From Nitrospirota bacterium (lineage in GTDB: Bacteria; Nitrospirota; UBA9217): a stretch of 64,000 nucleotides of DNA. The notes under the pieces were generated by a model. It saw only the letters and a list, made by a program, of their open reading frames with translations, searched no databases and was not told the DNA's origin. The position numbers and the translations under genes are program-made. The stretch lies in assembly GCA_963751455.1 (NCBI GenBank), contig CAVVUN010000001.1, positions 480,001-544,000 on the forward strand. The letters are read 5' to 3'. This document shows, one piece after another, positions 3,659 through 55,896 of the stretch (position 1 is its first letter; each line of letters opens with the position of its first letter).

Positions 3659-3755
3659 TGGACCAAGGCAACCGCCTGCACCCAGCGGTTACGAGTGGTA
3701 TCGCGAGTGCAGGGTGTGTTGCCGTTATCAACGCCGACATGGTCGGCTCGCTCCA
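3659..3755. repeat. TGGA-type REP doublet carrying a 42-bp micro-insert (3676-3717)
   Basis: tggaccaaggcaaccgc[insert]gttgccg...aacgccgacatggtcggctcgctcca; near-identical copy at 8616-8738, and a copy at 48091-48251 whose first hairpin is empty. Confidence 0.9.
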
Positions 3756-8615: not shown

Positions 8616-8738
8616 TGGACCAAGGCAACCGCCTGCACCCAGCGGTTACGAGTGGCATCGCGAGTGCAGGGTGTGTTGCCGTCCCATTGACCATCTGAAA
8701 TTCATAAACTAAAACGCCGACACGGTCGGCTCGCTCCA
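8616..8738. repeat. TGGA-type REP doublet with 42-bp micro-insert (8633-8674)
   Basis: Near-identical to 3659-3755, with a longer spacer. Confidence 0.9.
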
Positions 8739-22044: not shown

Positions 22045-24177
22045 TCCGTAGGAGCAGCGGTTGCCCGCCGCTCCCCCCACAGATCCGGACGTGCCTAATT
22101 AGGGCATCCGGTTCTTCAGTCGCTACGAGCCTTAGCCCGTGTCGAACCAAACAGGCGTCCCCGTTTGGCGCATAACTTTTGCTGTCCGTGGCTCGGTCAG
22201 ATGTTGTGGATGAGCCTGGGCTTCGGAAGCGGATACGCTTTCCGAAAGACTTTGTCAAACGTCTCGACGTTCACATAGCTTCTATTGCTGCGCCTGCTAA
22301 GCCAGTATCGCCAGGCACGCTCGATATGCTCGAAAACGACTTCGAGCATTTTGTAATTGCCCCGGATGCCGTAGTACTGGTAATAGCCGCGCAGCTTGGA
22401 GCGGAGCATACCGTGTTGCTCCTTTACAGGGTCATGCCGGTTTTCACGGCACCACTCCCATATGGCTTTCATGAATCTTCGGAGACGCTTGCCGATGGTT
22501 TTACGCTTAATAACCCAGTATCCACTAAGTGCTTTCGCCCAGTAATGGGTGAATCCGAGAAAGTCGAATGTCCCGTTTTCCTTTTCCGTCTCCTCTTTCG
22601 GGGACGGCTGGATAAACCGAACCAGTTTCGTCTTTTCGGGATGAACGGTCAGGTTGTAACGGCCGAACCGTTTCAGCAGGACTTCCAGCACTCGGCGGGC
22701 GTCGGCTTCTTGCTCGAAACCGATGATAAAATCATCGGCATACCGAATCAGAAAGCTCTTTCCCTTGAGGCGTGGCTGCACGTCCTGTACGAACCATTCA
22801 TCCAGCACGTAGTGCAGGAATATATTGGCAAGCATCGGCGATGCTACCCCGCCCTGCGGCGTGCCTTTGTCGGGGTAGATCATTTCACCGGCGTCAAGCA
22901 CTCCGGCATTGAGCCACTTGCCGATGAGCCTTAATATTCCTCCATCCTTCACTTTCTTCTCGATGAAGCTCCTGAGAAGACCGTGATTGATGGTATCGAA
23001 AAATCCGCTTACATCCGCATCCACTATCCAGTTGATGTTCAGCTTTATGCACTGCTCTCGTAGCTCCCGTATCGCCTGATGCTGACTGTGACCTTTTCTG
23101 AAGCCGGGAGAGAACGGGTGGAATAGCGGCTCGAAAATAGTCCCCAGGATCATTACCACCGCTCGTTGGACGATTTTGTCCTCGTAGCAGGGTTTGCCTA
23201 TGGGTCTCTTCTTTCCGCCTTCCTTTTCGATCCATACCCGTTCGACGGGTGGCGCCACGTAACGGTTTGATTTGAGCCGTTCGTGCAGTTCCCGGAGGTT
23301 TGCGTCAAGGTCTTCGGCATATTGCTTTGCCGTGACCTTGTCAATTTCCGGAGCGCTGCTTCTGCTCGTCCGTCGGTAGGCTTCCGATAGAAGGTCGTAG
23401 TCTATCAAATGATACAGGTTGTTGAACACCATCTCCGGATAGTTCCGTGCCTGTTCCGCAATCTTCTGAAGTTTCGGTGATATGATTGGCGATCCCGGAG
23501 TATCTCTCATAGTTCCTTCCAGAAGACGTTATGCCCGGCCTCTCCTTCCCTTGAGTGGGTCCCTTGGACCTCGGTTCCCCACCTTCCCAGCCTCCGGATA
23601 TTTTCGGGGCCATCGGTACTATGATCGGCTAAGATTGCCTGACGCCCGTCTCACAGCGCTTCGCTTGCCGCTGGCGCTGCGATACCATGCTTTGCTCTCT
23701 GGTTTCGCTCGTCGGCAATAGAGAGCGCATTGCCGACGCCGTGGACTTTGTTCCCCCGGTGTCCTTCCGGCCATTCAGCATGGAGACATCCGGCCCTCCC
23801 AAGTCTCCGAGTTATCCCCTTGTGTGCGTGCCACGATCTAAGACCCCGGTGGTGTCCTCTCGGCTCGCCATAGCGCCTTCAAGGACTGTTGCCTTCCGCT
23901 GCGTCGAGTACGTCGGCTTTCCCTCCTATATTTTGGAGGTTATCCTACTGACCACAACCATACCTATTTCGGGATTCAATAACACGGCCCGCATACTTGC
24001 TCCACCCAGCTTTAATACCTTCCCTCACGAGAACGCACCTGGGCTTCGCTACCGACCTGCCGGCTCAGCTTTAGTCGGATGGGACTTGCGTCGCTTCGAC
24101 TCGCACCCACTGGATAACAATGACAGATTTCGTAGGATCGCTCCTATTCCCGCTGCCTCGGATTTATCTTGGCGCTA
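22045..24177 (-). mobile_element. Group II intron (bacterial class E-like); ends approximate
   Basis: Domain V GAAGAACCGGATGCCCTAATTAGGCACGTCCGGATCT (22081-22117) followed by a domain VI hairpin; about 670-nt structured 5' region; 5' end near TAGCGCC. Confidence 0.88.
22197..23510 (-). CDS. ltrA: Group II intron reverse transcriptase/maturase (no endonuclease domain)
   Basis: KRPIG, DKIVQRA, DADVSGFFD, GTPQGG, RYADDF, FDFLGF, X domain LRGYYQYY. Confidence 0.95.
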   Translation of the reverse strand: MRDTPGSPIISPKLQKIAEQARNYPEMVFNNLYHLIDYDLLSEAYRRTSRSSAPEIDKVTAKQYAEDLDANLRELHERLKSNRYVAPPVERVWIEKEGGKKRPIGKPCYEDKIVQRAVVMILGTIFEPLFHPFSPGFRKGHSQHQAIRELREQCIKLNINWIVDADVSGFFDTINHGLLRSFIEKKVKDGGILRLIGKWLNAGVLDAGEMIYPDKGTPQGGVASPMLANIFLHYVLDEWFVQDVQPRLKGKSFLIRYADDFIIGFEQEADARRVLEVLLKRFGRYNLTVHPEKTKLVRFIQPSPKEETEKENGTFDFLGFTHYWAKALSGYWVIKRKTIGKRLRRFMKAIWEWCRENRHDPVKEQHGMLRSKLRGYYQYYGIRGNYKMLEVVFEHIERAWRYWLSRRSNRSYVNVETFDKVFRKAYPLPKPRLIHNI

Positions 24178-24682: not shown

Positions 24683-25640
24683 CGTCCACCGTATCTGGTA
24701 TTCGACTTACTGTAAATATTTTAACATATAAGATGAGGCGATAGGAAGTAATAATTTGATTAGGGTTGTAAAGGGAGGCGCGGCTGTTGGTCGCTCCGGT
24801 CGACGAGAGAACCTTTAGGGTCAAGTCTTTTTCGTTGCATTTTCGTATTCACGAAGCCAGCGGCTGATCGTCGAGTAGTGGACGGCCACATGGCGGGCTA
24901 GTTCACTCTGATGATAACCGTATTTTTCCACGGCCTCGGACACCTTTTTCATCAGTTTGCGATGATTGTTCATGACTGAGTCGGGCAGCAAAACGGCAAG
25001 CGACGGTCGAGTCGAATATCGCTGACTCCGGGGAATTTCGGGAATGTCCTTGTGTTTTTTGAGATAATCTGTAAGCTTATCTACGAAATCGTCCTCACCT
25101 AAAAGCGCTTGGCCTCGCACTTCCGTCCAGATCGTCTTCTTTCCGATACCCCACTGAACGAACTGGCGATACTCTTTTTCCGCTTTATCTCGTTTTCTGC
25201 TGAATTGACCGAGCACCCAGTCCTTTGTGAGGCAGGGATGAGGTTCTGCCTTACCCGCCGTCGCAAGGTAACTGGACCACTTCCAGTCTTCCGGCGCTTC
25301 GACCATCCTTGCTCTTACCGAATTTAGAACCACATATCGGCAGACCTCAAGGAGATGACTGTCTTTCTGGATCAAGATAGCCTTATACCGGCCCTGGAAT
25401 AAATGCCCGGACCTTCCGTGATACTTGTTGAAAAGTTGCGTATACACTCCGTTCAATTGGCGCATACCGAGAGAAAGATTGCCTTCCGGGGTCTCGATAA
25501 GAAGGTGGTAATGATTTGTCATGAGGCAATACGCATGACAGATCCAATTGTACCGCTTGTTGACGTGCTGGACCGTGTTCAGGAAGTTTTCGCGGTCCTG
25601 GTCGTTTTTGAATACGGGCTTCTTCTCATTGCCACGAGAA

Positions 25641-26258
25641 GTTATAACGCTCCCTCAAAGAGGGAGGCTTAACGGTTGTGAGCCGTCTCAAAGACGGCCG
25701 TTGCGTTGGTTGCTAGAACTTCCCTTCATCGCGATCATTGTCAGTCTTTTCTTGTTCAGCGATGTACTTTTTAATACGCTCAAGCTCAAAGCCTACGGTA
25801 GACGCCGCATAGCCTCTTGCCCAAAGATTCTCTCCGCTGAAATTTCGTTGCTTCCCTCCAAATTGTCTCGCCACGGCTATGGCACTCTTTCCTTTCAAAT
25901 AGCCGATCACTTCTGCAACCGCGAGCTTGGGCGGGATCGTGATGCACATGTGCACATGATCTTTTGCTATATGACCTGATTCTATTTCACATCCCTTTTG
26001 CCTGGCCAATTCGTGGAACGCACCTTTCAAATACTGCCGAATCTGGCCAAACAATGCCTTCTTCCTATACTTCGGCACAAACACTACATGATATTTACAA
26101 TCATACCGTGAATGTGCTAAATTCTTGTACTCACTCATATATTCCTCCTCTTTGTCCTTGGCAACCGTCAAGCCTCAGAGGAGGAATACATTACTTAATG
26201 CTGTGAGGTCAAACCTTTTCAAGTCTCACTGGTAAAACCAGTGGCTTACCTATTTTGA
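25641..26258 (-). mobile_element. IS200/IS605-family (tnpA-only) insertion sequence, 618 bp
   Basis: Subterminal hairpins cactggtaaaaccagtg and ctccctcaaagagggag; inserted 3' of TAAC and ends in TAAC. Confidence 0.9.
25713..26138 (-). CDS. tnpA: IS200-type TnpA (HUH/Y1) transposase
   Basis: CKYHVVFVPKYR, DHVHM, YLKGKS, WARGY, YIAEQ. Confidence 0.95.
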   Translation of the reverse strand: MSEYKNLAHSRYDCKYHVVFVPKYRKKALFGQIRQYLKGAFHELARQKGCEIESGHIAKDHVHMCITIPPKLAVAEVIGYLKGKSAIAVARQFGGKQRNFSGENLWARGYAASTVGFELERIKKYIAEQEKTDNDRDEGKF

Positions 26259-26654
26259 GTTACGTGATAGACCGCACCGGCATATTCTATTCTTAGAGGT
26301 CGGGCCATGGGTCGACTGTAGCAGAAATCAGAATGAAATGCAACGAAAAAGACTTGACCCTAAAGGTTCCCTTGGAAATGAGAAGATGTACGTTTTTTGC
26401 TTTTTCTTATTTTTATTTTTTTAACCATACGAATTAGCCGACCGGCCCGGAGTCTGTCTGGTAGACGACTTCGAACGGGACAAGATGCTTTCCCCTGCCT
26501 TGCTGCTCACAAATTTTAGTGAAGTTCCCGCCCCCCAATGACAAAAGGCGACCGTATAGGAACAGGGTCGCCAGCGAATATTCAATTGCATACCGATAAA
26601 TCAGCGTTTTCTGCTACTAAGATAGGTCGAGTATAGCCACACCATATAGTGCTG

Positions 26655-29631: not shown

Positions 29632-29840
29632 TCCCTTAACCCTCTTAAAACAATTTTCGCGCAAAGCCGCCAAGACGCAAAGAAAGGATTTCTGAGCGTT
29701 GCCTCGTTAAGTCTTTTTTATGCCTTTTGCTTGCACCCAGCGTTTATGAGACCCTTGATTCCCGTCTCCCGTCTCTCAGGAAGATGGTACTATAACGGGT
29801 CTATGCTTCACCCTTGATTACCGTCTCGCGGATAATAAAG

Positions 29841-48090: not shown

Positions 48091-48251
48091 TGGACCAAGG
48101 CAACCGCGTTGCCGTCTTAATAAAACGCCATTACACCCTGCACTCGCACTTGCGCAATGCCTGGACTCATTGTCGTACCATCTCGCTGAGAAACTCGAGA
48201 CGGGAATCAAGTACCTCATAAACGCTGGGCGCAGGCGGATGGCTCGCTCCA
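48091..48251. repeat. TGGA REP doublet with an empty first hairpin and a reversed, itself interrupted micro-insert (48133-48234) in the second hairpin
   Basis: tggaccaaggcaaccgcgttgccg ... gccatt[acaccctgcactcgc...ctcataaacgctgggcgcag]gcggatggctcgctcca. Confidence 0.85.
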
Positions 48252-55500: not shown

Positions 55501-55896
55501 ACCACACCCTGCATTCGCGGCGTAGCACTCATGACCGCTGGGTGCAGGCAGAGGACACAGCATTTGAGAAAGAATCATAATTGATGAAATCGTAAGAAGT
55601 CAGAATAAGCCCTATTTCGTCATACCGGCGAAAGCCGGTATCCAGTCTTTTCAATGAGTTCAATGTTTACTGGACCCCGGTTTTCACCGGGGAGACGACT
55701 TTTTACGAATGCATCATAATAATTGCTGAAACCGTAATAATTCAAAATTTTCACACGGAGCCACGGAGCCACGGAGAAATAGCGCTGAAAACAAAGATGG
55801 TTTTCTTTGTGTCTTTGTGGCTTTGTGTGAGACTAGTTTTTACGAATGAATCATAATAGAAATTGTCCTTCTCTGTGCCTCCGTGTCTCCGTGGTT
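55501..55896. repeat. Nested repeat cluster: 9-mer arms enclosing a 44-bp micro-insert and two tandem MITEs (55581-55717 with a REP doublet; about 55724-55853 with 8-mer arms)
   Basis: acc[acaccctgc...gggtgcag]gcagaggacacag ... ctctgtgcctccgtgtctccgtggtt; the first MITE is near-identical to 9493-9629. Confidence 0.85.

Follow-up and report, generated by a model that had tools for sequence, protein, structure and literature searches.

The closest known counterparts of the element described here are the small dispersed repeats (SDRs) of Nostoc and its relatives, which Elhai and colleagues reportedly described in 2008 as being nested in heptamer repeats and having a covarying structure. We know of no mover or mechanism for SDRs, whose size has an upper figure of ~27 nt. 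According to the available excerpts of two papers, SDRs are ~20 nt in size (PMC2884548) and SDR5 inserts precisely into HIP1 (PMC4390886). Our element is likewise very small, non-coding and dispersed, inserts precisely without a target-site duplication (TSD), nests in repeats and has a covarying fold. It differs in its length (42–45 bp versus ~20 bp), in belonging to another phylum, in its loose G^YG target spread over unrelated repeat systems, and in its tandem-GA fold and loops of the DNA mini-hairpin type. We regard it as an SDR-like kind of element, the likeness being one of described features.

Other known systems share some of these features. The REP/REPIN-RAYT system, as far as the available excerpts describe it, resembles our element in having an imperfect hairpin with a conserved mismatch, a mostly extragenic location and no TSD (PMC3116915; PMC8266576; PMC3733652). 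Our element, however, lacks the GTAG/CGTC tag (its 5′ lead is CCTG or a variant of it), is a single unit with exact ends and no doublet, never bounds a RAYT gene and parasitises REPs. With the IS200/IS605 family it has in common a strand-specific hairpin, the lack of a TSD and a likely single-strand intermediate (PMC5027513, from the excerpt available), but it consists of a single hairpin whose foot carries the junctions, instead of separate left and right subterminal hairpins, it shows no guide-target covariation, and no TnpA-bearing parent was found. The same excerpt gives a lagging-template preference for IS608 (PMC5027513), and the strand bias of our element is opposite. The palindromic elements of Rickettsia also insert in frame into unrelated metabolic genes, yet they are ~150 bp long in the excerpt available (PMC10969869), compared with 42 bp for the element here, which as a rule lies within a host repeat, in a surface loop. 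A search of the literature, with most subscription journals outside it, returned no description of the element.

The window, i.e., the whole 64-kb stretch of DNA that was analyzed, contains four copies and part of a fifth. Copy 1 (3675..3716, + strand, 42 bp) lies between ribE and ribBA, in the loop of the right arm of a REPIN-like REP doublet (3659..3755), the arms of which are also found on either side of RAYT genes at other places in the genome. Copy 2 (8632..8673, + strand, 42 bp), downstream of cbiM, occupies the same site of the same REP host (doublet at 8616..8738). When both are compared with the paralogous empty REP arms ending ...CCG^TGTTGCC that are present in the genome, the element begins CCTG, finishes GGGTG and is placed after a host G. 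The initial annotation had recognized the sequences of these two copies but placed them at 3676–3717 and 8633–8674; since the empty arm at 48099–48113 is a one-base variant of the other arms, its frame was misplaced by one base, the true ends lying one base to the left. The REP doublet also bounds two Y1 genes, one of which passes the NCBIfam RAYT cut-off.

Copy 3 (48134..48235, − strand) lies upstream of carA in the left arm of a REP doublet (48091..48251). The right arm of this doublet, although a one-base variant, is indeed the uninterrupted host hairpin that had been described. A reversed copy of 42–44 bp had been reported in a hairpin at 48133–48234; the copy is present, but it is a 102-bp composite with a 58-bp second repeat, B (48157..48214, − strand), nested at the internal GAG^TG site of the element. 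B is also found outside the element, and it is nested at one element site in 21 of the 30 copies parsed under a strict rule. Copy 4 (55505..55548, − strand, 44 bp) sits in an arm built of 9-nt units, such as those found on either side of GxxExxY genes; the earlier call of a reversed copy in a 9-mer arm was correct except for its coordinates (55504–55547). The fifth copy consists of the left half only (29730..29750, + strand; right half absent) with B-type units next to it, and had escaped the earlier count of four.

Across the 5.72-Mb genome an nhmmer profile matched 167 times at E<0.01, a number that rose to 224 with the cut-off at E<1, while a shuffled genome gave 0 at E<1. The element is real and not a product of chance, and its scope reaches far beyond four copies. 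Its length is 42–45 bp in 73 of 81 copies, and the earlier view of this non-coding unit as an ultra-small mobile element without an ORF is supported. Within the window's family, 15 of 27 genomes had matches to a covariance model; among 123 genomes from other Nitrospirota families, none did. Over the whole family the element occurs in 40 of 63 genomes, with 1 to at least 100 copies each and a patchy distribution within genera (in genus g19, ten genomes have 14 to at least 100 copies and five have none); presence and absence are sharply bimodal among these related genomes. A strict pattern was found in ~170 stretches of a species-level genome collection (Nitrospirota titles for 77 of 80 among the matches listed) and in an estimated ~1200 stretches of metagenomes. 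One viral contig carries three element copies in spacers, and its genes, as judged by eye, resemble tail genes.

The copies are old and highly diverse in sequence (106 distinct among 112), so that they may no longer be active and their mover may be gone; its possible loss from many genomes weakens every co-occurrence test given below. Nearest neighbors differing by ≤1 base had a common host 29 times and no common host 3 times, and we infer that near-identical copies have mostly spread passively within mobile hosts.

The insertion itself is confirmed by homologous pairs of filled and empty sites with clean junctions, namely L268 versus L309/L313 (91% over 215 nt) and L233 versus L015 (90% over 239 nt). 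The idea that the empty form could be a simple deletion or an assembly collapse does not fit the numbers, as empties outnumber filled sites (21 empty and 7 filled for the right REP arm). In the orthologous ribE-ribBA spacer of 29 relatives the element is found in none, and one of them has the same REP doublet, empty. This spacer (L144–L172) holds a different repeat family in nearly every genus.

Ends were set by empty paralogues within 3 mismatches, which were available for 82 of 135 full-length copies. Relative to a conserved GCACCC-type core, the insert starts 3 bases before (71 copies), 4 bases before (10) or 2 bases before (1). It finishes at GGGTG or a covarying variant, and the 3′ junction is exact. 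The left end (n=83) reads G^CCTG in 49 cases, has one extra base (G^N-CTYG) in 17, reads G^CTYG in 8 and shows other alterations in 9. The base preceding the insert does not occur among the empties at 13 of 87 sites, some of these cases being slips of alignment or copies of a single event. In two instances a 9–10-nt copy of the right flank of the target has taken the place of the left end, and overall the deviant left-end bases match the target no more than by chance (24 vs. 22.6). Target duplications of 2 bp (6/81 copies) or 3 bp (1/81) are so rare that no TSD can be assigned, as had been noticed from the window. The accompanying statement that there are no terminal inverted repeats (TIRs) is correct in function but not to the letter: a 7-bp subterminal inverted repeat exists, flush on the left and 3 nt short of the right end, and shows compensatory changes at 0 of its 7 pairs. 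A classical MITE was rejected, as the combination of TIRs and a TSD was not found.

That the element interrupts other repeats holds for the four copies of the window, all of which lie within repeat arms, and for the genome at large, where 83 of 112 parsed copies reside in a repeat with an empty paralogue, as against 43 of 150 intergenic control sites chosen at random with the same motif. The hosts, classified by loose patterns and hence in a qualitative way only, are RAYT REPs, 9-nt-unit arms bounding GxxExxY genes, heptamer arrays, NTS-like palindromes, larger repeats and the element itself. A single host context, which the initial annotation had allowed for, is thus not what is seen across the genome. 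The preference for repeats could partly be due to selection. Among 143 de-duplicated sites, the target has G at −1 in 123, T or C at +1 in 125 and G at +2 in 89, with a pyrimidine-rich stretch upstream. It is therefore mostly G^YG, and both donor feet also read G^Y. Hairpin loops had been proposed as the target, but insertion into them is not enriched (24/94 sites vs. 83/421 other G^Y sites, p=0.21). No guide- or TSD-like link of element bases to target bases was found after de-duplication. The structured strand coincides with the C-rich strand in a ratio of 82:48, a marginal difference from the 277:243 of the hosts themselves (p=0.049). Head-to-tail element junctions were seen at one locus only (L061). 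A role as terminator was rejected, convergent spacers not being enriched (19/143 vs. 369/3339, with crude gene calls).

On the CCTG strand the fold consists, from the base up, of a 5-bp basal stem flush with the 3′ end, an A·A mismatch, 2 bp, a G·T pair and a 4-nt bulge, followed by C-G, tandem G·A, G-C, T·G, G-C and a short loop. Two-sided (compensatory) changes occur at 9 of the 13 pairs in a set of 55 related, hand-picked sequences (19 of them for diversity), and 0 of 500 shuffles reached this number, which is not to be read as a probability. Over 360 copies the wobbles are conserved (T·G in 352/360, G·T in 332/360), and the tandem GA stands in a Y-GA-R frame in all but one. As both features occur in just one of the two strands, they count for a single-strand fold. 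Against this, nearest-neighbor models prefer the 7-bp register, and in them the opposite strand folds equally well or better; they ignore sheared G·A pairs, which together with covariation are the basis of the proposed fold.

The apical loops (349 copies) are 2–4 nt long and include GCGNAGC (22), GCGNNAGC (27) and GNYA (19, vs. 8 for GNRA), with UNCG in 0. One loop class is rich in GNRA (29/92) and fits RNA too. In the available excerpt of PMC13037366, the GCGNAGC and GCGNNAGC motifs are described as DNA mini-hairpins that are far less stable as RNA. The loops thus appear to favor the DNA form, short of proof, and a single-strand DNA intermediate is likely on these sequence features.

Some copies lie inside genes. 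Among the 167 matches, 21 overlap crude gene calls, and several of these are real genes. Six copies fall within 11 kb in cbiC, cbiD, cbiET, cbiL and cbiH, and others are found in genes for a nitrogenase-type protein, a deacetylase, a radical-SAM enzyme and a TPP enzyme. All six in-gene copies that were parsed have a length of 42 nt, in a set ascertained on intact frames; multiples of three make up 32/79 overall. In cob genes, three copies in reverse orientation have TCA, a rare variant, at the place where the common bulge (49/79) would give TAA. As the frame is kept and stops are avoided, we infer that the in-gene element is translated and not removed by splicing. The sharing of the rare variant by these three copies suggests local hopping. 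In cbiH the loop has 14–16 residues in 6 of 10 parsed orthologues, and 25–37 in four that contain host repeats alone; here, where two copies are present, it reaches 56. With six in-frame copies in five cobalamin genes, the element would reshape proteins. Repeat-derived in-frame loops occur in the cobalamin genes (G000 C9:85919-96417; L361–L372), and in four other genomes the cbiH loop has been entered by different repeats.

We consider the chances about even that the element is a non-autonomous 42–45-bp single-strand DNA hairpin and that an enzyme acting in trans, which was not found here, cuts it and joins it after G. Such an enzyme would bind the top-strand hairpin through its A·A mismatch, 4-nt bulge and tandem G·A, and the hairpin would be freed at the G^C of the left foot and the G^Y of the right foot. 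The 3′ G of the element would then be joined exactly to a target opened after G, while the 5′ end would be sealed less exactly, with 0 or +1 base, a replaced base or, rarely, microhomology. After insertion, most near-identical copies would be carried along inside mobile hosts. If this is true, the insertion of a short hairpin by a small enzyme, with no duplication, would represent a new DNA-writing chemistry. The 360 parsed natural variants provide exact ends, a defined fold and a target rule. A bolder version is that the 42-nt hairpin is a complete mobile unit parasitizing repeats, with a strand-transfer chemistry that involves no HUH, DDE, bridge recombinase or reverse transcriptase. We put this forward tentatively, as a less probable reading; if true, the element and the cyanobacterial SDRs would together define a category of minimal transposons whose enzyme is of a new type.

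A long copy carrying a transposase, as envisaged in the initial annotation, was not found by end pairing in the genome, which gave only nested repeats, false pairings and one IS nested in a repeat within the element (1.39 kb). The neighbors of 289 copies are housekeeping genes, with no mobile gene enriched, and in this genome the element stands beside Y1, RT, IS110, four-helix-bundle, GxxExxY, DUF559 or GIY-YIG genes only incidentally. Candidate genes were also profiled over the 63 family genomes, a comparison in which thresholds differ by family, most genomes are incomplete and kin are non-independent. Four-helix-bundle genes were found in 29/40 element-bearing and 13/23 element-free genomes. 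An integron integrase was found in 26/63 relatives (21/40 element-bearing vs. 5/23 element-free by hand count) and in this genome not at all at E≤1e-90; attC sites or integron cassettes were rejected on this ground and for want of GTT/AAC core boxes in the alignment. The mover is likely not a resident RAYT, reverse transcriptase or integron integrase.

The mover suggested by the initial annotation was an HUH enzyme, and in such a peel-and-paste route a RAYT or IS200-type Y1 transposase would bind the hairpin and move it as a single-strand circle. The mismatch and bulge of the hairpin correspond to the requirement of TnpA-REP in the available excerpt of PMC8266576, there is no TSD, the hosts in the window are RAYT REPs, and the G^Y common to both feet and the target suits HUH chemistry. 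There are also 33 Y1 matches in this genome, but none ends in a full element copy and no Y1 gene is bounded by the element, one copy of which lies within a REP adjoining a RAYT gene. Y1 genes were found in 31/40 element-bearing and 22/23 element-free genomes; none was found in a genome that has 89 copies, or in one that has 7 and is assembled as a single contig. The host RAYT was found in 3/63 relatives, two of them element-free. The 5′ tetranucleotide shows no guide-like covariation with the target, and ragged left ends are untypical of HUH transposition. We therefore regard this route as unlikely.

We also give a low probability to a process with no dedicated enzyme, in which a stable, nuclease-resistant hairpin is captured at nicks made by host-repeat nucleases (GxxExxY, GIY-YIG/Ssn-like or RAYT), sealed by repair and carried by the host. 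It would suit the mostly passive spread and the origin of the hosts from several nuclease-repeat systems, among them NTS-like hosts similar to the Ssn target (PMC11893778, in the excerpt available). GxxExxY genes occur in 35/40 element-bearing and 14/23 element-free genomes, in 27/27 genomes with at least 12 copies and, within one genus, in 10/10 element-bearing versus 0/5 element-free genomes. One target motif over unrelated hosts and an exact 3′ end point, however, to one enzyme. As a dedicated partner GxxExxY was rejected: 58 proteins from 11 element-bearing and 5 element-free genomes showed no element-linked clade, those of both groups being intermixed (20 changes vs. 19.5 shuffled, among non-independent kin), and the element was found at 0 of the 53 GxxExxY loci that were retrieved. 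On these two grounds the co-occurrence is read as a matter of supply, GxxExxY being likely to accompany the element because it provides host repeats.

An RNA route, with reverse transcription of a small structured RNA at a nick or with the removal of an intron-like unit from transcripts, seems quite improbable to us. The exact 3′ and ragged 5′ junctions, the conserved G·U-type wobbles and the six RT genes of this genome would agree with it. Nonetheless, RT genes are found in 16/40 element-bearing against 16/23 element-free genomes, the element lies in both orientations to genes (41 same, 68 opposite) and has no match in Rfam, and the uniform length and stop-avoiding variant of the in-gene copies point to a translated insert. 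A self-splicing intron or known ncRNA was rejected on the Rfam result and on the in-gene copies, which keep frame and avoid stops. Finally, a miniature IS110/IS1111-type element, on which a bridge recombinase would act through the subterminal inverted repeat, is very improbable: the 7-bp repeat, the lack of a TSD, the three IS110 genes of this genome and the targeting of REPs by members of this family (PMC12288879, in the excerpt available) would fit, but the repeat shows no compensatory pairs, none of the three genes bears element ends or conserved subterminal inverted repeats in common with the element, no long copy exists among the matches and the target is far too loose.

A number of other repeats and mobile units were noted on the way. 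B (window 48157–48214 and 29751–29830; G000 C3:110884, C2) is a 58-bp hairpin that also forms tandem units on its own. A ~300-bp structured repeat (L238, L245, L259, L059, L062, L082, L283; G000 C12:217500) without an Rfam match has several insertion sites, and its filled sites often have 3–4 extra bases ~5 nt upstream of the junction. At L001 (G000 C8:314540-315929) there is a nest of four levels, with a host arm containing the element, the element another repeat, and that repeat a frameshifted integrase-type IS. GxxExxY genes (L298–L352) nearly all lie between inverted 9-nt-unit arms, and the arm type tends to follow the protein clade.

The window itself also holds an NTS-like palindrome (55620–55650) and an empty 9-nt-unit arm (55755–55780) in the same spacer as copy 4. 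At 22050–24090 (− strand) there is a group II intron with an RT/maturase, the 5′ end of which was not located. At 24790–26370 (− strand), a Y1 gene and a helix-turn-helix gene lie between terminal inverted repeats in a TIRtron-like unit, which is broken by an IS200 at ~25640–26250 and has ~10 relatives in the genome.
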